Shown here piece by piece: positions 20,791-48,856 of a stretch of DNA of 64,000 nucleotides. Under the pieces are notes generated by a model, which did not search any database, was not told where the DNA came from, and saw nothing but the letters and a program-made list of their open reading frames with translations. The translations under genes and the position numbers were made by a program. This DNA is from Takakia lepidozioides (taxonomy: Eukaryota; Plantae; Bryophyta): assembly GCA_030704615.1 (NCBI GenBank), contig CM060734.1, positions 62,372,001 through 62,436,000 of the forward strand, given 5' to 3'. How positions within the stretch are numbered: position 1 is the first letter of the stretch; each line of letters begins with the position of its first letter.

Positions 20791-20831
20791 TGAGAGCAAG
20801 GAAAACATAACATTTACAGATATATAACAAC

Positions 20832-21236: not shown

Positions 21237-21524
21237 CAGTCCGCTGTGCCAGTCCCGGCCAACAGTCCACCCAACAGTCTGCCCGCCAGTCCGTCGCCCA
21301 TGAGTCCGCTTTCCTCCAGTCCACTGATGATGCCGCATCTAGACCATCCGTTCGCAAATGCCATCTGAGCCCTCCATTTTTAGGGCATGAATTCTAAGCC
21401 GCCTGCCACTTACCAGCAGTCGCGAACGTGCGCACTGATGCTCCTTGCACGTTGTCCATCGTGTCTAGTGTACTGCGGCGCGTTTCTTGCAGGTTCTGAA
21501 GCGTGTCCTCTGTACTGTACAGGG

Positions 21525-24259: not shown

Positions 24260-24291
<32 letters not shown>

Positions 24292-24426
24292 AGGGCATTT
24301 TGATCTAATTTAAATGATTTAAAGCCAAATTGGTCATATCTTTGTCAAATGGACTCTGTTTGACCCAGTTTTTGAGGGGATAGCTGCAGAAAGGGGAAAT
24401 CTACCAATCTAGACCTCAATATCGCT

Positions 24427-24972: not shown

Positions 24973-25727
24973 ATCAGGATTAGATCTTGCTGGGTCGGGC
25001 TTCTATTCTTCCCCTCCATCTCTGTACTATTTTCATTACCTTGTACTTGTAGTTGCCAAAGCCTCTCTTGGTGGAGGCCAGTCAGTCCGGGGTTTTGAGC
25101 TGGGATATTCCGCAGGATCAGCGTTGCTGCTGGATTTTGGTGTGGGGGTGTTGATGTTTTGATTTCTTGTGTTTGGATCCCCCCCAACACCTGCATGCTT
25201 GACTGTGCGCCATGTTGGTTTTGTGTGGGCGCTTGCTTTCATAGGGATTAGGCCGGATTTGATCACCGGTCAATCCTAGAGTATGCTGTCGGTGGTGAGG
25301 CTGGAGTGATGACCAGCAAGACCACCAGTGTTTCTTCTATGGTGAGGCTAGGTTGATGACCAGCCAACCATAGGAGTTCTTGCGGTGGATGCAGGTGCAG
25401 GTGCCCTGAGCCATTGGGATATGACCCTTAGACTGCAACAGGTGCCCACCCGTGTCACTATTAGATTAGTACTAGAGACTTATAGTGTCACGTGGAGGAG
25501 GTGCACATTGTGAGTGTCATTATGGAGTTACCCAAGGGTTTTGAGGGGAGTACGGCTACAAGCAGTACCAGTGAGAGTGGGTTCACAAGACGAGGTATTC
25601 GGTTCAGACCACCTTCACCGCCACCCTCAACTACTGTAGAGTCAGACACAGACTCGGAGGCTTCATCAACAGGTGTGCAGTTTCATTCGCCATTGTTGTG
25701 GGACGACATGGAGGAGATGTATGGAGA

Positions 25728-26719: not shown

Positions 26720-27502
26720 TGTCGTGCGCATACATATCGCTACACAACTACATCGTTGTCCAAACCACACCACACATATATGCACAATAAAGTAGTCTGC
26801 CACAATGATAGAAAACCAACGAACACACTGTTTACACAAAACATGAAAACCAAACCATCACTCTTAGAAATAGTAGTCGAGCCAGGGGCACCCCAAGCTA
26901 TGGGGACTCCACCCCACAACAACCTACACTCCCATCATGAGTACACTCAGATCTAAACGCATGCAGGAGCTCGGTCGCGCAGGCTCAACTCGAGAAAGAT
27001 GAGCCGCGCGACTGCCGCTCTCGTGAAGATAAGACGGACCAGGTGTCAAACTAAACTTGACATCTGATTTAACACTTGACCTAAATCCAAGTGTTAAATA
27101 CAAATAACTAGTTTTATTCTAGCTGTTTTCACACTGTGCTTATTTAACTTGACAGCTGTCGTGCGCATACATATCGCTACACAACTACATCGCTGTCCAA
27201 ACCACACCACACATATATGCACAATAAAGTAGTCTAGCACAATCGCCCCCCTAGCTGGTGGATAGGTCCCTCTACCTCCAGATAGCTACAAGATGAAATA
27301 GCCACAACCGTACTAAGTCCTCCATCACTGTCCCTATTGTACTCAAACTCTATAGATCAAGAGGCCGGGTACAAGAGTAGCCCCATCGTTAGTCGCCGTC
27401 TTGCAATCTGTGAACTTGAGCCAGGATCTCGTGTGTTCAAGGTCTCCTAGTAGCCGGGCCTTGCGTTTCTTGTTAGCCTTCCATGGTTGTATCCACTCCC
27501 AC

Positions 27503-30500
27503 TATCCAATGCAATGTGGACATAACCAATCCCCATCTGGAACCATCTCAAGAGGTGGAGTCTAGCATCCCATATGCCAACCTCTAGAGCATCGATCACA
27601 CACCAACATGGTGGCTGCCCCTTTAGCAGACCCACACAACATGCACCTCAAACCTGCAGATACCACTACCAGGTTTGGGTCAATCCTGCCATCGACATTC
27701 GGAAGGTGACATGGCGCACAATTACGCACATGGTCCTTCCAAGTTATGCCATCCCGACCCTCCAAGACCAAGACGCCTGAGGGCAAGACCTCTCGAACCC
27801 TCAAAATAACACGTCCTGCAGTCACATCCAGGGTTGTAGGAGCAGTCTGCTGCAGATAGACATAGTCACCAGGGTTGAATCTCCGAACCCCAGGACGATA
27901 GCCCCCACCACGTATGGTAGCATACCTCAACGTATCACGGTGTTGTGCAATGGCAAGGTTCTCGAAAGCCATGGGCATGACTCTCTTGAACAACTCTGCA
28001 CGCTGCTCACATGCACGTGCCCACACGTCCGGATCGTCAAGGTTAAGAACTGTAGCAGTTTCTCTGCGAATGGATGTAGGCAAATCCGGCTCTCGGCCAA
28101 AGAGAAGAAAGTATGGTGAGAAGGAGGCAAGTGATGCTTGCTTGCTGAACCTATAGCCCATGGCTAACCAGGGTAACTGAAGGTCCCAATCTCCTAGGTG
28201 TCCCTTCTGCAAGCCATACTTGCGCAAACCCCTCTTTACTGTCTGAACAACTCTCTCTGCCAAGCCATCGGCCTCAGGATGATCCCGAGAAGTGGTGCGG
28301 TGGTCTATCAAGGCCTTGTCACACAAAGCCTGAAACTCCCCCAAGAACTCTCTCCCTTGGTCCGTGAGTACCTCAGCTGGAGCACCAAATCGGCTAAGCA
28401 CACAATCCAAGAATGCATACGCAGCTCCCTCACTAGCCTTATCAGGCAATGGAACCAATTCAATCCACTTGGAGAAGTGCTCCACCATCATCAACACGTA
28501 CTTGTTGTGGCGCATGGTCAGTGGCAACGGCCCTGCGAAGTCAAGACTCCACCTGTAGCCCAATCCCATGATCGGAAGAGGGTGCAATTGTGGAGAAGGG
28601 GCGTTGAATGAAGCACGCCCCTGTCACACACCATGCACCTAGCCACAAATTGTTGCACCTCTGTGTGCATACCACGCCACCAATACTGCCCCTGCAGTAG
28701 ACTATGAGTGCGTCGCACCCCAAAATGCCCAACTCCTCATGGGCATGGCGCACTAACCGTGCCGCTGTGTTGGGTGAGGCACAATCCTCACTCGACCATC
28801 CTCCCACACTCGGAGCAGGTGTGTCCCCTCGCACTTGAACCTCTTGGCTCGTTGTAGGATCGATCCCTCTCCTTGGCAGTCACAGTGGCTGCCGTGTCTC
28901 CAGTGCGGAGGTAGTCCAACACAACTGAATCCTCATGTATATCTTTGGCGCCACCTTGCTCATTGCTGGCCTCAGGGACCTCAGACACTTGATCTACAGT
29001 CATCCCTGTTGCAGGTCCAACCTGGCCTTCCGCTGCCAAGATACACAGAAATGCAGATGCATGCCATCCGGGCACCATCTCCTCGTCCGTCTCACCATGC
29101 CACCGAGCTCCAGTGTCATCCTGTTGGCTCGTGCATGGATTGCGACTCAACCATCTGCATTGCGATTGACCAAACCCGGTCGATGCACCACCTGAAAGTC
29201 ATACTCTTGAAGGATGAGTGCCACCGTGCAAGCTTCCCGTAAGCTTGTCTGACTCCATCAACCACTTGAGTGGTTGGTGATCCGTGACAAGGGTGAAGAG
29301 ATTGCCGTATAGATAGCACCTGAAGTGTGCCACGGCCCACACTGCAGCTAAGCATTCTCCCTCATATGAGCTATACTTAGACTCTGCAGCATTGTTCGAG
29401 CGGCTAGCATAAGCCACTACGAACTCTCTTCCCTCATCATCCACCTGTGTGAGCACCGCTCCAAGCCCTAGCATGCTCCAATCTGTATGCAGCTGAAAAG
29501 GACGCCCCCTGATAGGTCGTCTCAAGATGGGCGCCGAGGTCAACCTCGCCTTGAGCTCTTGGAAAGCTTGTTCCTGCTCATCTTCCCACTGCCACTCCTG
29601 GTCCACCTTGGTCAGCTTGGTTAGAGCCTTTGCAATGGCACTAAATCCCTTAACAAACCGTCTGTAATAGTTTGCTAACCCCATGAAAGCTCGAACTCGG
29701 CTCACATCCGTGGGGCGTGGAACCTGTGCAATGGACTCTACCTTAGTCTGTTGTACCCCCAATCCTCCAGGATATATCATGTGACCCAGATATTCAATCT
29801 GGTTGTGGAAAAACTTGCACTTGCCCGGATGTAACTTCAATCTGTGCGTCCTCAAGCGCTCAAATACCCCCTGAAGGTGTCTCTCATGCTCCTCCACCGT
29901 AGCACTAAAGATGATGATGTCATCTATGTAGCACCGAGCAAACTCCACCCCTGCTAGAATCCTGTCCATGACTCTTTGAAACTCAGCGGGAGCGTTTTTA
30001 AGCCCAAATGGTAAGAACCGCCACTGTATAGGCAATCCTTCCCGTGCTCATTGATCCCCCAGAATGCCGTCTTTGCTTATCCGCCTCCTTGATCGGCAAC
30101 TGGTGATATCCGGATTGTAAATCCAACGTGCTAAAGACCTTGGAATGCCCAATGGCATCAAGATCTCCTCTGGTGTCGGCATGGCATACCTATGGACTTG
30201 GTCTGACGATTTACAGGCCGGTAATCACCGCACATACGTCTCTCCGTCCAATTGCCATAGACATCCTTCTTAGCTGGCATCACTGTGGCTGAAGCATACT
30301 CTCCACCAGAGAGCTCCACCAATTCTGCCTCCCAGAGATCTTGAGTCCTCATCTGAATCAAAGACCTCTCCATGTCACTATATCTATAGGTCTCCGAAAG
30401 ATTGGCGTGTCAGTGGCCAACTCAATACGGATCTCTTGACCCTTCAGTGCTCCCAAGTCCTTCAAACTGAAGGCAAAGCAATTCCTGTAAGCCCTCAGGA

Positions 30501-30542
30501 ACCGCCGTATACGTCGTCTCTCTCCTCCGGTGACAATGGGTC
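27503..30542 (-). pseudogene. Copy 1 pol 3' half: RT, RNase H, integrase, PHD finger (frameshifted)
   Basis: LPFGLKNAPAEFQR, YIDDIIIFS, LHTDWS...SYEGECLAAVWAV, WSLDFAGP...LTDQGREF...DGLAERVVQTVK, CMLCG...CDRCSRGWHMGC. Confidence 0.95.
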
Positions 30543-31109
30543 TGTCAAGTTAAATAAGCACAGTGTGAAAACAGCTAGAATAAAACTAGTTATTTGTATT
30601 TAACACTTGGATTTAGGTCAAGTGTTAAATCAGGTGTCAAGTTTAGTTTGACACCTGTCTGTCTTATTCTTCACGAGATGCGGTCACAGTCGCGCGCTCA
30701 TCTCTCTCGAGTGAGCCTGCTCGACCGAGCTCCTGCATTGTTGAGGACTGAGTGTGCTTATGATGGGAGTGTAGGTTGTTGTGGGGTGGAGTCCCCATAG
30801 CTTGGGGTTCCCCTGGCTCGACTTATATTTTAAAGAGTGATCTTGAGGGATTGCATATTTCTTGTGTTGAGAGTGTGTGTCCTTTACAAGTTTGTTTATC
30901 ACTCGAGAGAGATGATCGTTATCTAGTGTGCTGGTGCTAAGCTAGATACAATGTTTGTTTTAGCATTATTATAATACATATCTTGGGCGGGAGTCCATCT
31001 GGCCTTGCTTTTTTCGCTGGTCTGTGCGCAAGAGCATAGGTGCTGTACAGTCCATTAGAGGAGAAAGGAGAAGTTTCAGAGATGGAGAAGGCAGCGGACA
31101 GGCATTGAG

Positions 31110-31634
31110 GGAATGTGTGCTGGTGCTGGACTTCGGATCGCAGTATACGCATCTTATCACCGTCGTGTCCGACAGTTCTCTATTTGCCCCTTTTGCTTAC
31201 CTGCTGGTACCGCCCTTGGAAGCCATTCAGGGGGCTCAATCCCTCCGTTAATAATTCTCTCAGGTGGACCCCGTTCTGTCCATGAAGAGGGCTCTCCCAA
31301 CTGTGGCCTGATGGCTTCTTCGAGTACACAAGGAATCATGGGATCGTAGTGCTTGGCGTTTTAACGGCTGCACCTTATTGTCAAAGTGCTGGGAGGAGAG
31401 GTCAAGCAGGCGGAGAGCCAAGAGTATGGCGCATGTAAATAGCTGCTGTGAAGGATAGTAAACTATATGGGTGATGCAGAGAGCTTCTCAAACCCGGTCG
31501 TGTGGATGAGTCATGGTGATGAGGCAGTTAACGTTCACCAGGCTTTCACGTCGTAGCCACCAGTTTTGCAGGGCAACATTGCTGCCATTGAGACAGCGCT
31601 GCTTGGAATTTATGCTCTTCAATATCATCCCGAG
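31110..31634 (+). pseudogene. Captured GMP synthase glutamine-amidotransferase fragment
   Basis: VLVLDFGSQYTHLI, IILSGGPRSVH, VWMSHGDEAV and GIYALQYHPE across several frameshifts. Confidence 0.9.
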
Positions 31635-31986
31635 GGTTTTGTGGCAAGGCCAGAGGCTGGGACGGACGGGTCTCTCAATCTCATGATCTGGCAGTGCACT
31701 TTACCTGGCAAAGCTGGGACTGATTTGGGAAGGGGGATTCTACCCAACTGCAATCCATTTCAGCGAGGACTATCCCAGTAAGCCACCCAAGTGCAAGTTT
31801 CCCGCAGGCTTCTTTCACCCGAACCTGTATCCGTCAGGCACAGTGTGCCTCTCTAACCCTCAATGAGGACTCTGGGTGGAGACCAGCCATCACCGTGAAA
31901 CAAATTCTGGTTGGCATCCAGGAGCTGCTAGATGCCCAAATCCAGCTGACCCAGCACAGACTGAAGCGTACAACTATTCATCCAGG
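31635..31986 (+). pseudogene. Captured SUMO-conjugating enzyme (SCE1/Ubc9) fragment, intronless
   Basis: [95 protein letters not shown]. Confidence 0.92.
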
Positions 31987-32114
31987 TCGAGAAGTCACAG
32001 GTGGACCAGCTCAAGGTCTGAAACTCCCCCAAGTCTGAAACCTTCCAAGGCTGTTTACAACATGACAAGAAAGCAGCAGAGATATACCTGCTTACTGGCA
32101 AAGAGTCATTGCTA

Positions 32115-32240
32115 GGAGCTGCATTTGATCCAGAGCTACACTCTGTACTGGAGCTGGCCAGTGATGCTGAGCTGTTTGAACTATTGAACATTCTCTATGG
32201 ACAAAGCCTGCTGAGCCTGCTGTTGAAGTCAGTGGCGCTA
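32115..32240 (+). pseudogene. Captured fragment of a conserved plant protein (YaaW-like, uncharacterised)
   Basis: AAFDPELHSVLELASDAELFELLNILYGQSLLSLLLKSV resembles a conserved plant/cyanobacterial motif; from recall only. Confidence 0.55.
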
Positions 32241-33290
32241 GACGGAGGTGCTATACGGGCTGCTGGTTTGATCAATGGGTGTTGGATCTTCTTCCTTTGT
32301 CCACTCCTTACCTGTGAAGAAGTGCCCTGGTGGAAGCTTGGCAGTTGATCCAGTTACTAATGGAAGCCCTACCGCAAACAAAGAGTGTTGCTGAGAGACA
32401 AGGAAAGTACCTGGGCAAATCTTTGAACAAGCTGGCACAAGCAGGTGGTGGTCAGGCTGGGGTCCTTTTGTAGAGATCCTGTGGGCCTTTAATGAGCAAG
32501 TGATCCAACCATACTCTAAGCTCAGGCGTTGAGCAGCCTTACAGGTGAAGCTATAGGGTCCCGTGGGAACAATTTCTGCAGCTACACAGGGTGTGTTAGT
32601 GGCCTAAGAACAGCTTAGAAATGCTTCAGTGCAAGCCCTGGAAATTGTGGGCGTCAATGCCCGTTGCAGGAAAACATGAGATGCGAATTAGACCAAGTTG
32701 ATGGAACTTCAAGCTGGTCTTGGCTTTGGATTCCATGCAAAGACGGCCACATCACAGCAGGCCGCCTGTCCATAAGCCATGAAGGTGCTGCGCAGTGCAT
32801 CTACTCTTGAAATCGCCCCACTCGCTGGTTTGTAGTCTCTAGGTCTCGAGGAGGCAGGCCCACGCGCAGAGAAAAGCAAATCGTGATAACCCCACCCAAC
32901 TGAGGTCGAGTGTTGGAATTAACGAGCTCTTGGTGCCTGGAGAATCCTGGAGGGGAACGACCTCGGGAACTCGTAGATAACCTGGGAACAGGTTGTAATG
33001 ACAAAAGCGTTTTGGTTTAAAAAAAAAAAAACAAAGCCTTTTTGATCTAATTTAAATGTTTAAAGAGCCTGGTTGGTCATATCTTTGTCAAATGAGCTCC
33101 GTTTGACTCAGTTTTTTGAGGGGATAGCTGCAGAAAGGGGAAATCTACCTATCTAGTTTTCTGTTTTTGGGACTCTGCTAAAAATCTATGGAATTTTTAG
33201 AGTGTGAGTGTGCCATGAAAGATCCACAATCCTGTCTCTAGAACCTGTGCTGGTCTATATTAGAGACAAATCTGTGGATGTACTCCTTGT

Positions 33291-34039
33291 ATGGCTGGGG
33301 GAAATGAGGACGTAATTGAAGGGCAGGTCTCTTCTCTTAGCCTGTGCACCAAGGGGACAAGATTTATGTTTCCCAAGGAACTCAGACTGATTTGAGTGGA
33401 GAACAGTTGGACGAGTTGATTGCATACTGGGAGTCAGGCATTAGCAGTAGACAACAGACTGCTGTAGTTGGCATTGAGGGCCTCAATATCGCCTTGGACA
33501 GTCAGAACTCTGTTGGAGCCAGCAGTTCTGCAGCTGTAGGTGAAATACCAAAGTGGGTGAAAGCTAGGCTTGGAACACAGCCAAAGACAGCCCCGGGGAC
33601 CAAGGTGTTCAGCCACAAGGCCGTGGTGTACTGGAGCAGAGGAGCAGGAGCTACACAAGTTTGTGCAATCAGACATGGTTGCAGCCGGATACGCTCTGCA
33701 CAGGGCAACCACGAGCGGGGGTTCATCAGCAATGACATGTTTGTTGTGCGTGAAGGAGATGCAGTCATTCGCAATGAGGACACCCGCAACCGTCTCAAAG
33801 CTTTCGAGTTGAGAGACTATCAGACCCTACCTTTGTTTTCTTTAGTGTTCAGTGAGCGGGAGATAGGGGAGTATTGCTTTGTCTCTACCTGGCAGAAAGA
33901 GGAGGAGGGTTGGTTAGAGCGAGCTACTGTAGCTTGGGACAAGGTTAGTGGCAGGTTTCTGGACATAGATATACCTCCTACACCTTACCATCATGCAGAG
34001 CGAGGCACTTTGAGAGAAGTCTGGCAGTTGATAGCATAG
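33291..34039 (+). CDS. Extra ORF (~250 aa, unknown function) upstream of gag in the retrotransposon
   Basis: Present in all three copies (24427-24972 +, ~47350-48090 -). ATG at 33291 (MAGGNEDVIEG) with one frameshift at ~33350 in this copy. Confidence 0.7.
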
Positions 34040-34551
34040 ATCAGGATTAGATCTTGCTTGGTCGGGCTTCTATTCTTCCCCTCCATCTCTGTACTATTTT
34101 CATTACCTTGTACTTGTAGTTGCCAAAGCCTCTCTTGGTGGAGGCCAGTCAGTCCGGGGTTTTGGGCTGGGATATTCTGCAGGATCAGCATTGCAGCTGG
34201 ATTTTGGGTGGGGGTGTTGATGTTTTGATTTCTTGTGTTTGGATCCCCCCAACACCTGCATGCTTGACTGTGCGCCATGTTGGTTTTGTGTGGGCGCTTG
34301 CTTTCATAGGGATTAGGCCGGATTTGATCACCGGTCAATCCTAGAGTATGCTGTCGGTGGTGAGGCTGGAGTGATGACCAGCAAGACCACCAGTGTTTCT
34401 TCTATGGGTGAGGCTGGGTTGATGACCAGCCAACCATAGGAGTTCTTGCGGTGGATGCAGGTGCAGGTGCCCTGAGCCATTGGGATATGACCCTTAACTG
34501 CAACAGGTGCCCACCCGTGTCACTATTAGATTAGTACTAGAGCCTTAGTGT

Positions 34552-36100
34552 CACGTGGAGGAGGTGCACATTGTGAGTGTCATTACGGAGTTACCCAAGG
34601 GTTTTGAGGGGAGTACGGCTACAGGCAGTAACAGTGAGAGTGGGTTCACAAGACGAGGTATTCGGTTCAGACCACCTTCACCGCCACCCTCAATACTGTA
34701 GAGTCAGACACAGACTCGGAGGCTTCATCAACAGGTGTGCAATTTTCATTCGCCATTGTTGTGGGACGACATGGAGGAGATGTATGGAGCTACCAAGGGG
34801 CCTCGTAGGTACTCTGGAGCTGTGGGCACAATCGAGTTGGATGACTTTATCCAGGAGTTCGACAGCTGGTGTGATTTGCAGCAGATGCGCAATCCACAGC
34901 TATTCACCCCATTCATGGCGTGGAAGGGACTGTTCCAGCATTTGGAAGGCCCGCCTATGGACGATTACCACGAGTTCAGGCGAGGACATGAAGCAGAGAT
35001 TGAGGAGTGGAGGATGTATTGGTCACCTGACTACGTCTCCATTACTCGAGGCACGACGACCAGTAGCTGCATCAGTACCAATAGCTCCCACTGCCAGCAC
35101 TAGTAGTGGAGCAAGTAGTGCTGGTACTTCTGCAGGTGGTACCAGTTCAAAAGTGCTACTACTCTCCTGCCACGACTACAACACATGTGCCTAGATTCAA
35201 CCCGGTGGTGGAGTTCTTCCAGGAGTTGCGAGGAACTACCAAGGTGTACGGACAGAGAAGCTGCGAAGTTTGCAAGACTTCCAGCGCAAACCCAGTGAGA
35301 GCCTGCGAGAGGCGTACACTCGTATGAGGCGCTTGATAAGTGTGAAAGGGGTTACTGAAGCTCAGGCAATCCAGTTTTGGTATGGAATTCTGGACAAGGA
35401 GCTCAAGAAGGGTGCGAGATGCAACCCTGTTACAAGCAGCCCAACCCACATTAGCAGATGTGTTTCTGCTGGCTGAGCGGATTGAGCTCAACATGGTGGA
35501 GGAGCGAGTTGTTACAATTGGATTTGGCAAGGACATGCCTGTACGGGGCACAGCTGTCAGCCCACAAGGCACAAGGGACTGCCCAACAGCGTGGTCAGGG
35601 GGCAAGGTATTGCCCAGCCCAAGTTCCATGGAGCTTACACGGGACCTCAGGTGCAGAGGCCGTCTCTTTGCAGGCCAACAGCAACCAGGGGTGATATGTT
35701 GGACATGTGGAGGACCCCATGTCAAGAGAGATTGCCCAGAGAGTGGCAGAAGGCCGGCACAAGCACAGCCTGCACAGTTGCAGTGTGGGCATTGTGGCAA
35801 GTATGGGCATGGAGATGCCCAGTGTTATGACTTGCATCCTGAGTTGCGCCCAGGCCAGTTCCGGGAACAATGGTGGCCGGGGGCGAGGTGGACCAGCCCA
35901 AAGAGGACGAGGTGGTCGGGCACGAGGTGCAGGCCAAGGGCAACTCCACATGGCAAGGACGCGGAGGTCAGGGTGTTGACCAAGGCATGGCCAATCGGCT
36001 TCAGCAGCTAGAGCAGAGGATCGCTGCCATGGCTATAGCTCAGGCGGTACCGGCTCCCAGGCGGGATGGCCCACCTCCTGCTCCTGAGGGAGGAGATATG
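34552..36100 (+). pseudogene. Copy 2 gag (frameshifted) with two zinc knuckles
   Basis: ELDDFIQEFDSWCD, FQRKPSESLREAYTRMRRL, CWTCGGPHVKRDC, CGHCGKYGHGDAQC. Confidence 0.85.
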
Positions 36101-36679
36101 GGAGGCATGGGATTCATGTGCGGAGCAGCACTACCATTAGAGCAGGTGGAGTCTGCTGCAGCCGTGACTCGAGGAGCAACACGAGTTCCTGAGCCACGAG
36201 GTGCAGAGGTGGATTGGATCCACAACGTGGGGAGGCAAGCCGTCAGGCAAGGCTGCCTCAGTCATTCACCTTGGCGGAGACAGTGTCAACGCCATCCATG
36301 GCACCTAGTTCTCGCCCGACTGTTACCGAGGCGGAGGTTACTATGCCATTGGGGAGAGCTACACGTGCAGCACTGACACCTGCTACCAAGGCTAGTGCAG
36401 CCGGTGTGTTATTGGGGGCAGCCACCTCTGTGTGTCAAGCCCCACTGTTCTCGGCGACCATGATTGCGACGCCGGGGTGAGACCAGCTGCAGTGTTCAGA
36501 CTAGCAGCAACACTCTGTGAGAGTGGGAGGTCACTTCATCTTCTGCGGAGTTAGTGGAAGGTGTAGTGGCAGAGGGATCCTCGGATTTGAGGGTCAAGAC
36601 TGCCACGGCAGCGCCCTGGCAAGCTGCAGCTGCCAGTTGACGGAGCTGCCAGCTAGGCCAGCCTTTGAGCGCGCCATGG

Positions 36680-37140
36680 TGACACCTGGAGTTGTCTTGT
36701 TAGACAACCAGGGAGGCATTTTCACTTTGAGTGGACCGGCAGGCAAGAAGTACCGGCCACTGCGGGTCTTGTTGGACTCAGGAGCTCAGCCACTGATGTT
36801 GGGCAGAGCTGCTATTGCAGGTTTGGGCCTCATGGAGGCGGATATGGAGCCTTGTCCTTTCCAGATACAGACATCTCTGGGAGGATCAGAGCAGGCTCGG
36901 GCATGACACGGCATCAGTTGGCTATTAGACTGCAGCCGGATCATCCTGTAGATGGCTCAGTGATGCGAGCCAAGGCCATTGTGACAGACGCGGTCTCTTA
37001 CGATGTCCTCGTTGGTGGGGCAGTGTTATACCCCATGGGCTTCACCCTGGATTTCTGGGAGGAGTCAGCATCCTACAGGCCTGGATGGCAGTCAGGGGAT
37101 GGTCGCCGTGCACAGCTCCCTGTGACATTCATTGGGGGTA
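36680..37140 (+). pseudogene. Copy 2 retroviral-type aspartic protease
   Basis: RVLLDSGAQPLMLG catalytic motif and YDVLVGGAVL C-terminal motif. Confidence 0.85.
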
Positions 37141-37469
37141 TTGCAGCTGCCAGCGGGGCAAGATGCCAACACTAGCCGCCTTCACAGCTGCAGTTAGTTG
37201 GCCTGGAGAGTTGCTGGAAGGCAATGCCCATGCAGAGGATGTGCCACCTCCAGCAGAGCAGGATGACATGCATGGTACGGCGGAGTTGCCTGCCATGGTT
37301 GCTCACACTCCGTTGTGGGGTACGAGCAAGGATTTGCAGCAGCTGCTGATGGACGGGTGCAACAAGCTTGGGTAGAAGCTTTTGTACCGTCAGAGAGGAG
37401 GAGAGTGTGATTGCACCAGGGCCACCTCAGTTGTCGCCATTGGACACCACACTCTTGGTGGCAGCGACC

Positions 37470-38450
37470 GGATGAAGGCATATGCCTTCTGGACTTATTT
37501 GGCGGGATCAGCACTGGATTGGCTGCAGTGCTGCAGGCAGGTGTACGAGTTCGACGTTACCTGTATGTGGAGAGGGATGAGACTGCACGACGCGTCTCAC
37601 TGCGCCATGTTGCTCAGATGGTGCAGCAGCCCTGAGTTGTTGCCGGTGTCTGCAGTTCGTGGATATCAGCAGGCCTTGCCAGCAGACATTGCTTGCTGGG
37701 GGCGCAGGATTTGGAGCGGGTTGGCTCCATTGATCTGGTAGTGGCAGGTTGGCCCTGCCAAGGGCATTCATCAGCCGGGCATGGCAATGGATTGCGAGAC
37801 GAGAGGACGGGTTGTTTGGGAGATGGTGCGGATTTTGCGCCACTTGCAGCTTCATCAGGCTGTATCTCCGGCATACATCTTGGAGAATGTGCCTGATGGG
37901 TGATTCTCGGGCCAGGGTGATGGCCAGTGTGCATCAAGCGGTCGTGGCTTGGGTCAGCAGTATTGCTGGATGCAGCTGCAGTGGGGTCACGGGCTCATCG
38001 TCCACGACTATGGTGGACTAACTTGATGCCACCCGCACTGCTCAAGCGTGCATTTGATGGGGTGCAGCGGCCAGCACACCTCACCGTGGATGGCATTTTG
38101 GACACAGGAAGGCAGTCTCAACGTGTGAGACACGATGACCGTTCGCCTTTGGCAGTGGTCAACAGGGTGGGTCAACCACGAGCAGCATTACCTACACTGC
38201 TCAGCTTCCCAGGATCCCATGCTTTTCGGGATGGTGGACCTGGCCTCCTGTGGGATGCTCAGTTGCAGCAGTTAGTGGAGCCTAATGCCGACGAGCGAGA
38301 GCGGGCTATGGGGTTTTCCACTGGGACCACGGCGGTGCCTTCTCTTTCTGAGGCATCACGTCGTCAGGTGTTGGGGCAAGCAATGGATCTCAATTGCTTG
38401 ACCTGGATTGTCAGCTTGGCTATGGCTGAGCAACGTAGAGTGCGGAGTGC
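37470..38450 (+). pseudogene. C5 cytosine DNA methyltransferase domain (DNMT3-like motifs) inside pol of copy 2
   Basis: Motif I LLDLFGGISTG, motif II RYLYVERD, motif IV DLVVAGWPCQGHS, motif VI YILENV (~37875-37892), motif VIII GSRAHRPRLWWTN, motif IX ERERAMGF and motif X QVLGQAMDL, in canonical order across frameshifts. Confidence 0.93.
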
Positions 38451-38779
38451 ACTTCCCTTGACGGTCTCTCTGCCTACCGAGACGGTACAGGCAGCGAGTG
38501 GGGGCGAGCGGTGAGGACCACGAGGTGTAGACATCCATGGCACATGTGGGGGAGGTGCTCGAGGTTCAGAGGGAGTTGGCAGCGAAGGCAGCTGTGATGG
38601 ATGAGGTTGGGGATTCTTCTCGGGATGAGGAGGTTCTCAATGATGAGATGATGGGGCAGGATGAGGCCTTGTCATTGACTGAGCAGGAAGGGGGTACTGC
38701 TCAAGAGGTTGCAGCATAGCAACCACGGGACGCGTCCTCTACCTCTAAGCCCACTGGACTTAAGGTTGCAGTTACGGAG

Positions 38780-41700
38780 GACAATTGGGAGCCTGACATT
38801 GGACCCATTGTCACGGAGAGAGAGACGACGTATACGGCGGTTCCTGAGGGCTTACAGGAATTGCTTTGCCTTCAGTTTGAAGGACTTGGGAGCACTGAAG
38901 GGTCAAGAGATCCGTATTGAGTTGGCCACTGACACGCCAATCTTTCGGAGACCCTATAGATACAGTGACATGGAGAGGTCTTTGATTCAGATGAGGACTC
39001 AAGATCTCTGGGAGGCAGGTTTGGTGGAGCTCTCTGGTGGAGAGTATGCTTCAGCCACAGTGATGCCAGCTAAGAAGGATGTCTATGGCAATTGGACGGA
39101 GAGACGTATGTGCGGTGATTACCGGCCTGTAAATCGTCAGACCAAGTCCGATAGGTATGCCATGCCAACACCAGAGGAGATCTTTGATGCCATTGGGCAT
39201 TCCAAGGTCTTTAGCACGTTGGATTTACGATCCGGATATCACCAGTTGCCGATCAAGGAGGCGGATAAGCAAAAGACGGCATTCTGGGGGATCAATGAGC
39301 ACGGGAAGGATTGCCTATACCAGTGGCGGTTCTTACCATTTGGGCTTAAAAACGCTCCCGCTGAGTTTCAAAGAGTCATGGACAGGATTCTAGCAGGGGT
39401 GGAGTTTGCTCGGTGCTACATAGATGACATCATCATCTTTAGTGCTACGGTGGAGGAGCATGAGAGACACCTTCAGGGGTATTTGAGCGCTTGAGGACGC
39501 ACGGATTGAAGTTACATCCGGGCAAGTGCAAGTTTTTCCACAACCAGATTGAGTATCTGGGTCACATGATATATCCTGGAGGATTGGGGGTACAGCAGAC
39601 TAAGGTAGAGTCCATTGCACAGGTTCCACGCCCCACGGATGTGAGCCGAGTTCGAGCTTTCATGGGGTTAGCAAACTATTACAGACGGTTTGTTAAGGGA
39701 TTTAGTGCCATTGCAAAGGCTCTAACCAAGCTGACCAAGGTGGACCAGGGTGGCAGTGGGAAGATGAGCAAGAACAAGCTTTTCAAGAGCTCAAGGCGAG
39801 GTTGACCTCGGCGCCCATCTTGAGACGACCTATCAGGGGGCGTCCTTTTCAGCTGCATACAGATTGGAGCATGCTGGGGCTTGGAGCGGTGCTCACACAG
39901 GTGGATGATGAGGGAAGAGAGTTCGTAGTGGCTTATGCTAGCCGCTCGAACAATGCTGCAGAGTCTAAGTATAGCTCATATGAGGGAGAATGCTTAGCTG
40001 CAGTGTGGGCCGTGGCACACTTCAGGTGCTATTTATACGGCAATCTCTTCACCCTTGTCACGGATCACCAACCACTCAAGTGGTTGATGGAGTCAGACAA
40101 GCTTACGGGGAAGCTTGCACGGTGGGCACTCATCCTTCAAGAGTATGACTTTCAGGTGGTGCATCGACCGGGTTTGGTCAATCGAAATGCAGATGGGTTG
40201 AGTCGCAATCCATGCACGAGCCAGCAGGATGACACTGGAGCTCGGTGGCATGGTGAGACGGACGAGGAGATGGTGCCCGGATGGCATGCATCTGCATTTC
40301 TGTGTATCTTGGCAGCGGAAGGCCAGGTTGGACCTACAACAGGGATGACTGTAGATCAAGTGTCTGAGGACCCTGAGGCCAGCAATGAGCAGGGTGGCGC
40401 CAAAGATATACATGAGGATTCAGTTGTGTTGGACTACCTCCGCAGTGGAGACACGGCAGCCACTATGACTGCCAAGGAGAGGGATCGGATCCTACAACGA
40501 GCCAAGAGGTTCAGTGGGAGGGGACACACCTGCTCCGAGTGTGGGAGGATGGTCGAGTGAGGATTGTGCCTCACCCAACACAGCGGGCACGGTTAGTGCG
40601 GCATGCCCATGAGGAGTTGGGGCATTTTGGGGTGCGACGCACTCATAGTCTACTGCAGGGGCAGTATTGGTGGCGTGGTATGCACACAGAGGCAACAATT
40701 TGTGGCTAGGTGCATGGTGTGTGACAGGGTGCGTGCTTCATTCAACGCCCCTACTCCACAATTGCACCCTCTTCCGATCATGGGATTGGGCTACAGGTGG
40801 AGTCTTGACTTCGCAGGGCCGTTGCCACTGACCATGCGCCACAACAAGTACGTGTTGGTGATGGTGGAGCACTTCTCCAAGTGGATTGAATTGGTTCCAT
40901 TGCCTGATAAGGCTAGTGAGGGAGCTGCGTATGCATTCCTGGATTGTGTGCTTAGCCGATTCGGTGCTCCAGCTGAGGTACTCACGGACCAAGGGAGAGA
41001 GTTCTTGGGGGAGTTTCAGGCTTTGTGTGACAAGGCCTTGATAGACCACCGCACCACTTCTCGGGATCATCCTGAAGCCGATGGCTTGGCAGAGAGAGTT
41101 GTTCAGACAGTAAAGAGGGTTTGCGCAAGTATGGCTTGCAGAAGGGACACCTAGGAGATTGGGACCTTCAGTTACCCTGGTTAGCCATGGGCTACAGGTT
41201 CAGCAAGCAAGCATCACTTGCCTCCTTCTCACCATACTTTCTTCTCTTTGGCCGAGAGCCGGATTTGCCTACATCCATTCGCAGAGAAGCTGCTACAGTT
41301 CTTAACCTTGACGATCCGGACGTGTGGGCACGTGCATGTGAGCAGCGTGCAGAGTTGTTCAAGAGAGTCATGCCATGGCTTTCGAGAACCTTGCCATTGC
41401 ACAACACCGTGATACGTTGAGGTATGCTACCATACGTGGTGGGGGCTATCGTCCTGGGTTCGGAGATTCAACCCTGGTGACTATGTCTATCTGCAGCAGA
41501 CTGCTCCTACGACCCTGGATGTGACTGCAGGACGTGTTATTTTGAGGGTTCGAGAGGTCTTGCCCTCAGGCGTCTTGGTCTTGGAGGGTCGGGATGGCAT
41601 CACTTGGAAGGACCATGTGCGTAATTGTGCGCCATGTCACCTTCCGAATGTTGATGGCAGGATTGACCCAAACCTGGCAGTGGTATCTGCAGGTTTGAGG

Positions 41701-41844
41701 TGCATGTTGTGTGGGTCTGCTAAAGGGGCAGCCACCATGCTGGTGTGTGATCGATGCTCTAGAGGTTGGCATATGGGATGCTTGACTCCACCTCTTGAGA
41801 TGGTTCCGGATGGGGATTGGTTATGTCCACATTGCATTGGATAG
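38780..41844 (+). pseudogene. Copy 2 pol: RT, RNase H, H2C2/DDE integrase and C-terminal PHD finger
   Basis: RMCGDYRPVN, FSTLDLRSGYHQ, YIDD, TDWS, TDHQPLKWL, HEELGHFG..CMVCD, DFAG/TDQG/AER, CMLC..CDRC..H..C..WLCPHC. The RT-RH-IN order is Ty3/Gypsy type. Confidence 0.96.
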
Positions 41845-42591
41845 TGGGAGTGGATACAACCATGGGAGGCTAACAAGAAACGCAAGGCCAGCTACTAGGA
41901 GACCTTGAACACACGAGATCTTGGCTCAAGTTCATAGATTGCAAGACGGCGACTAACGATGGGGCTACTCTTGTACCCGGCCTCTTGGTTATAGAGTTTG
42001 AGTACGATAAGACAGTGATAGAGGACTTAGTACGGCTGTGGCTATTACATCTTGTAGCTATCTGGAGGTAGAGGGACCTATCCACCAGCTAGGGGGGCGA
42101 TTGTGCTAGACTACTTATTGTGCATATATGTGTGGTGTGGTTTGGACAGCGATGTAGTTGTGTAGCGATATGTATGCGCACGACAGCTGTCAAGTTAAAT
42201 AAGCACAGTGTGAAAACAGCTAGAATAAAACTAGTTATTTGTATTTAACACTTGGATTTAGGTCAAGTGTTAAATCAGGTGTCAAGTTTAGTTTGACACC
42301 TGGTCGTCTTATCTTCACGAGAGCGGCAGTCGCGCGGCTCATCTCTCTCGAGTTGAGCCTGCGCGACCGAGCTCCTGCATTGTTCTGGGGTGGAGTCCCC
42401 ATAGCTTGGGGTGCCCCTGGCTCGACTTAAATTTTAAAGAGTGATCTTGAGGGATTGCATATTTTTGTGTTGAGAGTGTGTGTCCTTTACAAGTTTTATC
42501 ATTGTGCTAGACTACTTTATTGTGCATATATGTGTGGTGTGGTTTGGACAGCGATGTAGTTGTGTAGCGATATGTATGCGCACGACAGGTC

Positions 42592-45500
42592 CAATGTCAG
42601 GCTCCCAATTGTCCTCCGTAACTGCAACCTTAAGTCCAGTGGGCTTAGAGGTAGAGGACGCGTCCCGTGTTGCTATGCTGCAACCTCTTGAGCAGTACTC
42701 CTTCCTGCTCAGTCAATGACAAGGCCTCATCCTGCCCCATCATCTCATCATTGAGAACCTCCTCATCCCGAGAAGAATCCCCAACCTCATCCATCACAGC
42801 TGCCTTGCTGCCAACTCCCTTTGAACCTTGAGCACCTGTGTGCCATGGATGTCTACACCCGTGGTCCCCACCGGCTTGCCCCCACTCGCTGCCTGTACCG
42901 TCTCGGTAGGCAGAGAGACCATCAAGGGAAGTGCACTCCGCACTCTACGTTGCTCAGCCATAGCCAAGCTGACAATCCAGGTCAAGCAATTGAGATCCAT
43001 TGCTTGCCCCAACACCTGACGACGTGATGCCTCAGAAGAGAAGGCACCGCCGGTCCCAGTGGAAAACCCCATAGCCCGCTCTCGCTCGACGGCATTAGGC
43101 TCCACTAACTGCTGCAACTGAGCATCCCACAGGAGGCCAGGTCCACCATCCCGAAAAGCATGGGATCCTGGGAAGCTGAGCAGTGTAGGTAATGCTGCTC
43201 GTGGTTGACCCACCCTGTTGACCACTGCCAAAGGCGAACGGTCATCGCGTCTCACACGTTGAGACTGCCTTCCTGTGTCCAAAATGCCATCCACGGTGAG
43301 GTGTGCTGGCCGCTGCACCCATCAAATGCACGCTTGAGCAGTGCGGGTGGCATCAAGTTAGTCCACCATAGTCGTGGACGATGAGCCCGTGACCCCACTG
43401 CAGCTGCATCCAGCAATACTGCTGACCCAAGCCACGACCGGACTTGATGCACACTGGCCATCACCCTGGCCCGAGAATCACCCATCAGTGGTACATTCTC
43501 CAAGATGTATGCTGGAGATACAGCTTGATGAAGCTGCAAGCAGCGCAAAATCCGCACCATCTCCCAAAAGACCCGTCCTCGAGTCTCGCAATCCATTGCC
43601 ATGCCCAGCTGATGAATGCCCTTGGCAGGGCCAACCTACCACTATCAGATCAATGGAGCAACCTGCTCCAAATCTTGCCCCCAACAAGGAAATGTCTGCT
43701 GGCAAGGCTTGTTGGTATCCACGAACTGCAGACACAGGCAACAAGTCAGGGAACTGCTGTACCAACTGAGCCACATGGCGCGCAGTGAGACGCGTCGTGC
43801 AGTCTCATCCCTCTCCACATACAGGTAACGCCTTACCGCACACCTGCCTGTAGCACAGCAGCCAATCCGGTGCTGATCCCGCCAAACAAGTCCAGAAGGC
43901 AAATGCCTTCATCCCCGCTGCCACAAAGAGGTGTGGTGTCCAATGGCGACAACTGAGGTGGCCCTGGTGCAATCACCGCACTCTCTCCTCTCCTGACGGT
44001 ACAAAAGCTTCTACCCCAAGCTTGTGCACCCGTCCATCAGCAGCTTGCTGCAAATCCTTGCTCGTACCCCACAACGGAGTGTGAGCAACCATGGCAGGCA
44101 ACTCCGCCGTACCATGCATGTCATCTGCTCTGCTGGAGGTGGCACATCCTCTGCATGGGCATTGCCTTCCATAAACTCTCAGGCCAACTAACTGCAGCTG
44201 TGAAGGCGGCTAGTGTTGGCATCTTGCCCCGCTGGGCAGATGCAATACCCCCAATGAATGTCACAGGGAGCTGTGCACGGCGACCATCCCCTGACTGCCA
44301 TCCAGGCCTGTAGGATGCTGACTCCTCCCAGAAATCCAGGGTGAAGCCCATGGGGTAAACACTGCCCCACCAACGTGGACATCGTAAGAGACCGCGTCTG
44401 TCACAATGGCCTTGGCTCGCATCACTGAGTCATCTACAGGATGATCCGGCTGCAGTCTAATAGCCAACTGATGTCGTGTCATGCCACGAGCCTGCTCTGA
44501 TCCTCCCAGAGATGTCTGTATCTGGAAAGGACAAGGCTCCATATCCGCCTCCATGAGGCCCAAACCTGCAATAGCAGCTCTGCCCAACATTAGTGGCTGA
44601 GCTCCTGAGTCCAACAAGACCCGCAGTGGCCGGTACTTCTTGCCTGCCGGTCCACTCAAAGTGAAAATGCCTCCCTGGTTGTCTAACAAGACAACTCCAG
44701 ATGTCACCATGGCGCGCTCAATGGCTGGTCTAGCTGGCAGCTCCGTCAACCTGGCAGCTGCAGCTTGCAAGGGCGCAGCCGTGGCAGTCTTGACCCTCAA
44801 ATCCGAGGATCCCTCTGCCACTACACCTTCCACTAACTCCGCAGAAGATGAAGTGACCTCCCCACTCTCACAGAATGTTGCTGCTAGTCTGAACACTGCA
44901 GTTGGCCTCACCCCCGGCGTCGCAATCATGGTTGCCGAGAACAATGGGGCTTGACACACAGAGGTGGCTGCCCCCAATAACACCGGCTGCTGCACTAGCC
45001 TTGGTAGCAGGTGTTGTGCTGCACGTGTAGCTCTCCCCAATGGCATAGTAACCTCCGCCTCGGTAACAGTCGGCGAGAACTAGGTGCCATGAATGGCGTC
45101 GACACAGTCTCTGCCAATGTGAATGACTGAGGCAGCCTTGCCTGACGGCTTGCCTCCCCACGTTGTGGATCCAACTCCACCTCTGCACCTCGTGGCTCAG
45201 GAACTCGTGCTGCTCCTCGAGTCACGGCTGCAGCAGACTCCACCTGCTCTAGTGGTAGTGCTGCTCCGCACATGAATCCCATGCCTCCCATATCTCCTCC
45301 CTCAAGAGCAGGAGGTGGACCATCCCGCCTGGGAGCCGGTACCGCCTGAGCTATAGCCATGGCAGCGAGCCTCTGCTCTAGCTGCTGAAGCCGATTGGCC
45401 ATGCCTTGGTCAACACCCTGACCTCCGCGTCCTTGGCCATGTGGAGCTTGCCCTTGGCCTGCACCTCGTGCCCGACCACCTCATCCTCTTTTGGGCTGGT

Positions 45501-48350
45501 CCACCTCGCCCCCGGCCACCATTGTTCCCTTGGAACTGGCCTGGGCGCAACTCAGGCAAGTCATAACACTGGGCATCTCCATGCCCATACTTGCCACAAT
45601 GCCCACACTGCAACTGTGCAGGCTGTGCTTGTGCCGGCCTTCTGCCATTCTCTGGGCAATCTCTTTTGACATGGGGTCCTCCACATGTCCAACATATCAC
45701 CCCTGGTTGCTGTTGGCCTGCAAAAGATGCCACGGGCCTCTGCACCTGAGATCCCCTGTAAGCTCCATGGAACTTGGGTTGGGCAACCTTGCCCCCCTAA
45801 CCACGCTGTTGGGCAGTCCCTTGTGCCTGTGGGCTGACAGCTGTGCCCCGTACAGGCATGTCCTTGCCAAATCCAATTGTAACAACTCGCTCCTCCACCA
45901 TGTTGAGCTCAATCCGCTCAGCCAGCAGAAACACATCTGCTAATGTGGGTTGGGCTGCTTGTAACAGGGTTGCATCTCGCACCCTTCTCTTGAGCTCCTT
46001 GTCCAGAATTCCATACCAAAACTGGATTGCCTGAGCTTCAGTAACCCCTTGGGTCACACTTATCAAGCGCCTCATACGAGTGTACGCCTCTCGCAGGCTC
46101 TCACTAGGTTTGCGCTGGAAGTCTTGCAAACTTCGCAGCTTCTCTGTCCGTACACCTTGGTAGTTCCTCCGCAACTCCTGGAAGAACTCCACCACCGGGT
46201 TGAATCTAGGCACATGTGTTGTAGTTGTGGCAGCACCTTTTGAACTGGTACCACCTTCAGAAGTACCAGCATTACCTGCTCCACTACTAGTGCTGGCAGT
46301 GGGAGCTATTGGTACTGATGCAGCTACAGGTCGCGTCGTGCCTCGTAATGGAGACGTAGTCAGGTGACCAATACATCCTCCACTCCTCAATCTCTGCTTC
46401 ATGTCCTCGCCTGAACTCGTGGTAATCGTCCATAGGCGGGCCTTCCAAATGCTGGAACAGTCCCTTCCACGCCATGAATGGGGTGAATAGCTGTGGATTG
46501 CGCATCTGCTGCAAATCACACCAGCTGTCGAACTCCTGGATAAAGTCATCCAACTCGATTGTGCCCACAGCTCCAGAGTACCTACGAGGCCCCTTGGTAG
46601 CTCCATACATCTCCTCCATGTCGTCCCACAACAATGGCGAATGAAAGTGCACACCTGTTGATGAAGCCTCCGAGTCTGTGTCTGACTCTACAGTAATTGA
46701 GGGTGGCGGTGAAGGTGGTCTGAACCGAATACCTCGTCTTGTGAACCCACTCTCACTGTTACTGCCTGTAGCCGTACTCCCCTCAAAACCCTTGGGTAAC
46801 TCCGTAATGACACTCACAATGTGCACCTCCTCCACGTGACACTATAAGGCTCTAGTACTAATCTAATAGTGACACGGGTGGGCACCTGTTGCAGTTTAAG
46901 GGTCATATCCCAATGGTCAGGGCACCTGCACCTGCATCCACCGCAAGAACTCCTATGGTTGACTGGTCATCAACCCAGCCTCACCATAGAAGAAACACTG
47001 GTGGTCTTGCTGGTCATCACTCCAGCCTCACCACCGACAGCATACTCTAGGATTGACCGGTGATCAAATCCGGCCTAATCCCTATGAAAGCAAGCGCCCA
47101 CACAAAACCAACATGGTGCAGTCAAGCATGCAGGTGTTGGGGGGGATCCAAACAAGAAATCAAAACATCAACACCCCCATACCAAAATCCAGCTGCAATG
47201 CTGATCCTGCAGAATATCCCAGCCCAAAACCCCGGACTGACTGGCCTCCACCAGAGAGGCTTTGGCACTACAAGTACAAGGTAATGAAAATAGTACAGAG
47301 ATGGAGGGGAAGAATAGAAGCCCGACCAAGCAAGATCTAATCCTGATCTATGCTATCAACTGCCAGACTTCTCTCAAAGTGCCTCGCTGCATGATGGTAA
47401 GGTGTAGGAGGTATATCTATGTCCAGAAACCTGCCACTAACCTTGTCCAAGCTACAGTAGCTCGCTCTAACCAACCCTCCTCCTCTTTCTGCCAGGTAGA
47501 GACAAAGCAATACTCCCCTATCTCCCGCTCACTGAACACTAAAGAAAACAAAGGTAGGGTCTGATAGTCTCTCAACTCGAAAGCTTTGAGACGGTTGCGG
47601 GTGTCCTCATTGCGAATGATTGCATCCCCTTCAAACAGAACAAACTTGTCCTCGGTAATGAACCCCCGCTCGTGGTTGCCTTGTGCAGAGCGTGTCCGGC
47701 TGCAACGCTGATTGCACAAACTTGTGTAGCTCCTGCTCCTCTACTCCAGTACACCACGGCCTTGTGGCTGAACACCTTGGTCCCCGGGGCTGTCTTTGGC
47801 TGTGTTCCAAGCCTAGCTTTCACCCACTTTGGTATTTCACCTACAGCTGCAGAACTGCTGGCTCCAACAGAGTTCTGACTGTCCAAGGCGATATTGAGGC
47901 CCTCAATGCCAACTACAGCAGTCTGTTGTCTACTGCTAATGCCTGACTCCCAGTATGCAATCAACTCGTCCAACTGTTCTCCACTCAAATCAGTCTGAGT
48001 TCCTTGGGAAACATAAATCCTGTCCCATTGTGTGCACATACTAAGAGAAGAGACCTGCCCTTCAATTACGTCCTCATTTCCCCCAGCCATGCAAGGAGTA
48101 CATCCACCAATTTGTCTCTCATATAGACCAGAACAGGTTCTAGAAACAGGATTGTGGATCTTTCATGGCACACTCACACTCTAAAAATTCCATAGATTTT
48201 TAGCAGAGTCCTAAAAACAAAAACCTAGATAGGTAGGTAGATTCCCCCTTTCTACAGCTATCCCCTCAAAAACTGTGTCAAACGGAGTTCATTTGCCAAA
48301 GATATGACCAATTAGGCTCTAAATCCTTTAACTTAGATCAAAAGGGTTTT
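42592..48350 (-). pseudogene. Copy 1 5' coding half: extra ORF, gag, protease and C5 DNA methyltransferase (~42940-43910)
   Basis: Inverted homolog of 33040-38800: LLDSGA (~44610), DLIVVGWPCQGHSSAG, FWEMVRILR..AYILENVPL, AHRPRLWWTN, QVLGQAMDLN. Confidence 0.93.
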
Positions 48351-48568
48351 TTTTTCTTTTTTTTTTCTTTTTCTTTTCAAATTTAAAAATTCAAATGAGT
48401 GAGAAGCTCTTTGGAAACTTCCCCTATCCTTACATGCTTTTCCACCTGGGTCATGCTTTCTCCCTGCAGGGGTGGAATTTGCATATGCTTATCAGCGTTG
48501 GAGAGGGCGGCAAGAGCGGACGTACTGATTGCGGGCGTACAGAGCTGACGGATGGGCTTTAGGGGCTA

Positions 48569-48856
<288 letters not shown>

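Follow-up and report, generated by a model that had tools for sequence, protein, structure and literature searches.

A Gypsy-type retrotransposon with a DNMT3 domain and DIRS-like repeats, KnitGypsy-Dnmt3, was described from Klebsormidium nitens in 2018 (de Mendoza et al., PMC5890265), and later papers place Gypsy-DNMT3 elements in 'streptophytes' (PMC12344493; bioRxiv 10.64898/2026.05.21.726589). According to the published account, yeast carrying the Klebsormidium enzyme showed no methylation, a result which its authors deem inconclusive, human DNMT3B being silent there too, and the methylome of Klebsormidium is ordinary for a plant (PMC5890265). A retrotransposon-borne C5 methyltransferase is also found in SymbioDIRS-Dnmt3, whose enzyme methylates CG de novo in yeast, and in the EpiLTRs (PMC5890265; bioRxiv 10.64898/2026.05.21.726589). 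However, SymbioDIRS-Dnmt3 is a DIRS element with a tyrosine recombinase, and the EpiLTRs carry a DNMT4-related enzyme, DAM, and a chromodomain (bioRxiv 10.64898/2026.05.21.726589). The role of a retrotransposon's own cytosine methyltransferase has been a question since 2018, in hosts that do not offer good genetics. The passages of PMC5890265 that were consulted make no mention of target duplications, a PHD finger, self-priming, or an integration route, and neither Marchantia nor Sphagnum is named in its text or searchable supplements. A literature search, with most subscription papers outside its coverage, returned nothing on land-plant copies, a readthrough stop, or the integration route.

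The window analyzed in this study, a stretch of 64 kb, contains two nearly whole copies (A and B) and one 5' fragment (C) of a single element. Copy A is inserted in the opposite orientation into copy B, just 5' of the reverse transcriptase (RT) of B, and both copies start with TGTCA and end with CGACA. The features are as follows, with + and − for the strand.

2031..4499, −: host gene for a PPR protein of the PLS-E-DYW type, with an open frame 822 codons long, evidence for a land plant
21936..25726, +: copy C, 5' part only, its leader holding an antisense squalene-hopene cyclase fragment
26716-26719 and 50714-50717: target duplication of copy B, AAAC, 4 bp
26720..30542, −: copy B, 3' part, with RT, RNase H (RH), integrase (IN), PHD, and B-A-B
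30539..30542 (left) and 42588-42591 (right), +: target duplication of copy A, GGTC, 4 bp
30543..42587, +: copy A, whole element, nested within copy B
30543..30901, +: copy A, 5' repeat A1, with the complement of the primer site, the putative transcript start, at 30698-30711
30902..30915, +: copy A, self-priming site of 14 nt, directly 3' of A1 and complementary to a stretch within A1
30920..33020, +: copy A, variable leader with host-gene fragments and an A tract at its end
33341..34039, +: extra open frame of 232 codons, common to A, B, and C, no family assigned
34771..36770, +: copy A, Gag with zinc knuckles, broken by small indels (tblastn with the Marchantia protein P0004)
36669..37172, +: copy A, aspartic protease (PR) region, LLDSGA, D at 36775-36777 (Pfam weak, E 0.05; homologues E 2e-4 and 1e-5)
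37474..38439, +: copy A, DNMT3-like C5 cytosine methyltransferase domain, 5 breaks
38717..38725, +: copy A, in-frame TAG then CAA CCA, between DNMT and RT
38720..40200, +: copy A, RT and RNase H (RVT_1 E 1e-21; RT_RNaseH E 1e-36)
40597..41154, +: copy A, DDE integrase core (rve E 9e-15)
41701..41835, +: copy A, C-terminal PHD finger (E 2e-11)
42087..42099, +: copy A, purine-rich tract directly before B1, putative plus-strand primer
42100..42185, +: copy A, repeat B1
42182..42191, +: copy A, palindromic B/A junction GACA-GC-TGTC, putative integrase cut site on a circle
42188..42500, +: copy A, repeat A2
42501..42587, +: copy A, repeat B2, right end of the element
42588..50713, −: copy B, 5' part, with A1, leader with a ribosomal protein L2/L8 fragment, Gag, PR, DNMT, and stop
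42944..43910, −: copy B, DNMT3-like domain, 6 breaks

The domain order Gag-PR-DNMT-RT-RH-IN-PHD is of the Ty3/gypsy type (Pfam, with a weak match for PR). Membership of the DIRS/PAT/Ngaro group, with its tyrosine recombinase and its lack of target duplications, is ruled out by the DDE integrase, the TG..CA ends, and the 4-bp duplications. Both insertions keep perfect target duplications, and the repeat pairs differ at 0/86, 3/87, 5/349, and 13/312 letters, a divergence which marks young insertions and which, in error-rich sequence, gives no date. The element shares with KnitGypsy-Dnmt3 the Gypsy order PR-RT-RH-IN, an unpermuted Dnmt3-type domain with its catalytic residues, purifying selection on the DNMT, and split repeats. 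Compared by published description, the two differ in host, a land plant here and Klebsormidium there, and in the reading frame: the DNMT of KnitGypsy-Dnmt3 lies in one ORF with RT and RNase H, whereas a CAR-YYA stop intervenes here (PMC5890265). Since there is no single ORF with RT, we set the element apart as a variant of the KnitGypsy-Dnmt3 kind. The top matches of the PPR gene, where named, are from land plants; among them are proteins of gymnosperms, lycophytes, mosses, and liverworts at 55-69% identity, a spread that singles out no clade, and the host is probably a seed-free plant. The original prediction of a charophyte-type DNMT retrotransposon in an embryophyte is thus upheld, by the Gypsy-DNMT3 kind of the element on the one hand and the PLS-E-DYW PPR gene of its host on the other. 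Other land plants have it too, the same domain being found in annotated proteins of Marchantia, Calypogeia, and Sphagnum.

The methyltransferase domain was read with X at each break and aligned to the intact Marchantia protein P0004, to which it is identical at 243/325 columns in copy A (75%) and 242/326 in copy B (74%). It lies after the protease motif (D at 36775) and before RT. Motifs I (LFGG), IV (PC, 37753-37758), VI (ENV, 37883-37891), VIII (RPRLWWTN, 37999-38022), IX, and X (GQAMD) were located in copy A. The original prediction had described an ordered set of C5 methyltransferase motifs, including PCQ and ENV, in two complete copies with frameshifts largely at different places. The alignment agrees as to the motifs, which run unpermuted from I to X in both copies, and as to the frameshifts, since only one of the 5 breaks in A and 6 in B falls at about the same codon; neither domain contains a stop codon. 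The completeness applies to the domain in A and B, but not to the element in B, which copy A interrupts 5' of RT. The Pfam DNA_methylase search that had been proposed for a consensus was made on the two copies and gave values above the cut-off for both (E 3e-5 for A and 1e-5 for B). The breaks of copy A coincide with 1-2 base indels relative to short-read contigs (runs of three studies; 12 of 21 indels listed) and are therefore private to copy A or to the assembly.

The best PDB matches of the domain are DNMT3A/B (E 3e-18), followed by DRM (4e-8) and HhaI/HaeIII (1e-6), and sequence, profile, and fold searches alike put DNMT3A/B first, with DRM and bacterial enzymes behind. The query of the fold search was the predicted model (pTM 0.71) of the homologue P0005, which is 68% identical to the window piece, instead of the window sequence itself; it matches DNMT3B/3A with E 3e-17 and a TM of 0.77 over the target. 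Motif VIII, of the form R-x-R-x-x-W-x-N, had been likened to both DNMT3 and DRM. Together with the solved relatives it makes the domain a DNMT3-like C5 methyltransferase, neither DRM-like nor bacterial-like; the likeness to DRM fails on the weaker match and on the order, which is circularly permuted in DRM (VI-X then I-V) and runs from I to X here. A viral source was also considered, and none of 101 pattern matches in viral contigs was confirmed as a relative. Phage records, taken for a phage or bacterial source, reach 25-27% identity and E values down to 2e-9 among the matches listed, far below the retroelement relatives.

A profile search among 1.84 billion representatives gave 457 clusters at E ≤1e-30, and the best 150 of the 457 were taken. 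The comparison covered 288 proteins, 195 with a full domain, of which 186 are distinct. The catalytic Cys is present in 184/186 of these domains (column counts), the Glu of motif VI in all 186, and the two Arg of the Arg-x-Arg in motif VIII in 181 and 184, while E replaces P before the catalytic Cys in 69. Judged by its residues, the domain appears catalytically intact. Between the window and the moss-type loci L002/L004 the dN/dS of the DNMT is about 0.07, with dS near saturation, and other lineages range from 0.05 to 0.17 (0.14 and 0.11 for L052/L053; 0.05 for L059/L060). Close moss-type pairs behave like dead copies, their DNMT values being 0.41-0.49 and their RT values 0.47-0.52. The lower ratios indicate that the DNMT domain is under purifying selection, as the original prediction required.

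The named relatives come from Marchantia polymorpha, Calypogeia fissa, several Sphagnum species, and two pol proteins of Scenedesmus; no protein match bears the name Klebsormidium. In M. polymorpha they form a cluster of 18 annotated proteins, several of them on the V chromosome. Yamato et al. reportedly noted in 2007 that the Y chromosome of Marchantia has a repeat with a methyltransferase in it; the V-linked copies fit that report, and we therefore make no claim to a first occurrence in land plants. In the Scenedesmus type (P0179, P0286) the DNMT stands between RNase H and integrase, a position shared by 44 unnamed proteins, many of which have E for P before the catalytic Cys. This group suggests that Gypsy-DNMT3 elements occur in chlorophytes, with the domain shifted within Pol. 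Sorted by the position of RT, the 186 domains comprise 46 with RT upstream, 8 with RT downstream in the same protein, 40 with a long upstream part without an RT motif, and 92 too short to place. In the DNMT tree (42 sequences), which like our other DNMT trees holds retroelement domains only and no outgroup from outside the family, the window domain joins the liverwort and moss elements with an SH-aLRT of 99.9, and the RT tree (25 sequences) shows the same groups. A second, distant DNMT3-Gypsy family (L059-L077) is present in the same metagenome contig sets; it has no stop before RT but agrees with the window element in its split repeats, its palindrome, and its self-priming site, and its putative transcript start is preceded, at a distance of about 30 nt, by a TATA box.

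As read from the nucleotide sequence, the DNMT in the clade of the window stands at the end of a Gag-PR-DNMT frame that is closed by TAG CAA CCA. RT-RH-IN-PHD is in phase with the DNMT but across this conserved stop. The claim that the domain is embedded in the pol polyprotein, in frame with pol, consequently stands in part: the phase with RT is kept, but the frame runs across a stop, and the embedding holds only for a presumed readthrough product. The TAG at 38717-38719 has a readthrough context of the tobacco mosaic virus (TMV) type, and copy B has the same TAG (42675-42673) with a context one letter shorter. In short-read contigs from four runs of four studies there is no variant at a level of at least 2% in 38715-38726, while neighboring codons vary, and no indel in 38600-38813. 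Among the metagenome loci, the flank anchor was matched in 44/80, every one of which carries a stop at this place (36 TAG and 8 TAA, followed by CAACCC in 41), many of these loci being redundant, so that they count as one lineage. With this moss type included, the stop recurs in three further diverged lineages beyond the window, the other two being L052/L053 with TAG CAG TTA and L047 with TAG CAA CCA. The CAR-YYA context is exact in the window, L047, L052, and L053, and the CAA CCC of the moss type matches it at 5/6 letters. L053 consists of two unbroken frames that share a phase, the first, of 1369 codons, with PR-DNMT and the second, of 1047 codons, with RT-RH-IN-PHD. Of all stop triplets in any frame, only the one at this boundary is followed by CAR-YY, 1/252 in L053 and 1/201 in copy A. 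RNA folds 3' of the stop, computed without a shuffle control, have −28 to −39 kcal/mol and no common shape. Annotated proteins end 96-98 residues past motif X in Marchantia and 100 residues past it in a Calypogeia-cluster protein, and the stop accounts for such gene models ending after the DNMT.

CAR-YYA is a readthrough signal (PMC2754532, PMC2194720), and that of TMV is active in plants, where one reporter gave about 20% (PMC2754532). The single in-frame stop with this hexamer resembles that of TMV, and in-frame stops have also been described for SIRE1, Tca2, and MuLV (PMC2754532, PMC2194720). However, in the accounts of SIRE1, Tca2, and MuLV the stop lies at gag/pol or pol/env, whereas here it follows the protease and an added enzyme, at the DNMT/RT boundary. 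We consider readthrough of this stop very probable: ribosomes would pass it as in TMV, giving much Gag-PR-DNMT and little full-length polyprotein. The stop thereby predicts both the amount and the place of the enzyme. In the sister clade (L059, L060, L064, L074; P0120, P0112, P0144) no stop parts the DNMT from RT, and L059/L060 and P0120 have an uninterrupted DNMT-RT ORF, as in KnitGypsy-Dnmt3; a DNMT at the level of Gag is therefore not a requirement of the family.

The second unusual feature is the arrangement of the repeats. The layout A-coding-B-A-B was found not only in the two window copies but also in seven loci with both ends, drawn from both clades (L021, L038, L039, L050, L060, L064, and L065). 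The B/A junction, ACA-NN-TG, has a 2-nt spacer in 15/15 junctions found, and the spacer is GC in 10 of them. Exact 4-bp target duplications flank A, B, L038/L039, L050, L060, and L064, that of L021 has one mismatch, and none was seen on inspection of L065. The A/B join corresponds to a flush joining of two predicted ends, with one letter varying among three related copies. The primer-site match of copy A is 14 nt long, compared with a longest match of 9 in 500 shuffles. Pairing of 13-16 nt was found in 7/12 elements (the three window copies, L050, L060, L065, and L074), with the partner about 155-165 nt inside A and in three different, lineage-specific sequences; in the other 5/12 the match is absent or at chance level.

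Self-priming has been described for the Tcn1/Tf1 Gypsy elements, which are found in seed-free plants and which our element resembles in a primer site complementary to its own 5' repeat, no tRNA site having been seen (Neumann et al. 2019, PMC6317226). Compared by features, it is unlike them in its split repeats, its DNMT, and a PHD finger instead of a chromodomain; a Pfam search of the element gave no match to a C-terminal chromodomain. The RNA would begin about 155 nt within repeat A and prime itself after A1, and use of the purine tract before B1 would give a linear (B.A)-coding-(B.A). From such a cDNA the second right-hand B needs end-joining, and the left end at A needs a cut at the palindrome. 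The ends would thus be joined to a two-LTR circle, or a head-to-tail dimer, and the integrase would cut the ACA-GC-TGT palindrome of the 5' LTR after each CA, with the usual 2-nt overhangs, and insert A-coding-B-A-B with a 4-bp duplication. The split layout and the internal palindrome together imply this route. A CA-NN-TG palindrome is also reported as a substrate of foamy virus and HIV-1 integrase, which cleave the palindromic two-LTR junction (PMC1180852, PMC1905944, PMC4372172). There the cut is a side route at joined cDNA ends, and circle-based integration is not known for DDE integrases in any other standing; in our element the palindrome lies within the LTR. The repeat anatomy sharply predicts integration from a circle, as what the layout suggests is the regular route. 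We regard priming, circle, and palindrome cut, taken jointly, as probable, with rather less confidence than the readthrough.

Our explanation as a whole, to which we give a probability of about 0.5, is that the element is a readthrough Gypsy retrotransposon with its DNMT at the level of Gag, likely methylating its own new DNA before or at integration. The packaged enzyme, in many copies per particle, would put 5mC, probably at CG, on extrachromosomal DNA, most simply at the circular stage, and the new copy would arrive already marked like host chromatin; we lean only slightly toward this step. Two observations speak against it, the CpG content of the element, which is no lower than that of its neighbors, and the silence of the Klebsormidium domain in yeast (PMC5890265). 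The PHD finger would steer the integrase toward histone H3 tails. It is tempting to go further, and we do so tentatively, against the odds as we see them: a Gypsy lineage that is ancient in green plants and extends from chlorophytes to the liverworts and mosses might integrate regularly through two-LTR circles by means of a DDE integrase acting at an internal palindrome, and its land-plant branch might have moved a stop such that an active DNMT3, made in capsid-protein amounts, methylates the circle before insertion, a transposon writing its own silencing mark. Three things are added by this study: the stop, the form in chlorophytes, and the reading of the layout in terms of a circle.

With the same anatomy and the same readthrough, the DNMT released by the protease could instead act on host DNA, be it at the target site, on other copies of the family, or genome-wide. 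A Gag-level enzyme would, on our reasoning, far exceed the need of one cDNA, and the PHD finger resembles the readers CHD4, KDM5A/B PHD1, PHF21A, and AIRE, whose PHD fingers bind H3 tails that lack methylation at K4, as the ADD domain of DNMT3 does. However, the PHD finger is on the integrase end, past the stop, and not on the DNMT, and the ordinary methylome reported for Klebsormidium (PMC5890265) does not suggest an enzyme at work on the genome. We consider action on host DNA unlikely, though it deserves to be taken seriously, and prefer action on the element's own DNA.

It could also be proposed that the stop truly terminates and that RT-RH-IN-PHD is made from spliced RNA, from an internal promoter, or by reinitiation, as reported for Tca2 or elements of the Ogre type. 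An in-frame gag-pol stop is not necessarily read through and can go unread (PMC2194720), and copies of the moss type have an ATG three codons past the stop, so that reinitiation is possible there. This near-stop ATG is, however, absent from the window element and from L053, where the first methionine comes 117 codons past the stop, inside RT. Moreover, four lineages retain one in-phase stop with CAR-YY, and their synonymous sites, wherever this was measured, are saturated. A contig of 2.2 kb from run X5, which is RNA by guess only, covers the end of the DNMT, the stop, and RT; it has small indels relative to the window, keeps a net single phase, and crosses the stop unspliced. These observations make true termination quite unlikely, and we retain readthrough.

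Decidedly unlikely is a role of the domain in DNA binding, cDNA protection, or RNA work, with methyl transfer to DNA incidental. It would fit the inactivity of the Klebsormidium domain in yeast (PMC5890265) and the absence of CpG depletion in the element: CpG observed/expected is 0.46-0.58 in the element, 0.41-0.69 in its surroundings, and 0.57 in a neighboring LINE, and since the element is like its surroundings, this comparison with neighbors in the window gives no footprint of self-methylation. Against it stand the near invariance of the catalytic Cys, Glu, and Arg over the 186 domains and the score of DNMT2-type proteins, E 1e-3, far below the 3e-18 of DNMT3. That the domain is a passenger fragment like the leader cargo, or an assembly chimera, is suggested by leaders that capture host-gene pieces and by a window rich in small indels, but is refuted by its constant position in liverwort, moss, and metagenome copies, by purifying selection, by congruent DNMT and RT trees, and by short-read contigs that span the whole stretch.

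The copies in Marchantia polymorpha, a tractable model with methylation mutants, make the role of such an enzyme testable. As the elements do not end in a normal pair of LTRs, LTR finders may place their borders wrongly, and in seed-free plants the elements may confound the counting of DNMT genes.

The leaders of the three copies, at 30920-33020 (A), 48420-50340 (B), and 22300-24240 (C), are different 2-kb mosaics of host genes between the primer site and the A tract, those of B and C having their first 300 bases in common; they look like repeated capture of mRNA by the element. The leader of copy A contains a piece of a ubiquitin-conjugating enzyme (PF00179, E 3e-15) and another which we take to be GMP-synthase-like (no Pfam match), and that of copy B the ribosomal protein L2/L8 fragment (E 4e-9). 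In the leader of copy C, about 230 codons of the N-terminal domain of a squalene-hopene cyclase lie antisense at 22896-23742 (−; E 1e-25 and 7e-14). The hopanoid cyclases of seed-free plants are of bacterial origin. The 232-codon frame 5' of gag, which recurs at 24376-24972 and at about 48030-47350 (−), has no Pfam or Atlas match and is absent from the 80 related loci. Elsewhere in the window, positions 1-1799 are a tandem array of units of about 400 bp that are 95-96% alike, and an F-box/LRR host gene with broken frames lies at 17711-19064 (−). A LINE-like element with a zf-RVT domain occupies 19620-21800 (−), with a second fragment at 61523-61897. A fragment of 370 bp from the integrase region of the element is found at 55527-55901, and a SWIM zinc finger frame at 52493-53155 may be a Mutator-type remnant.
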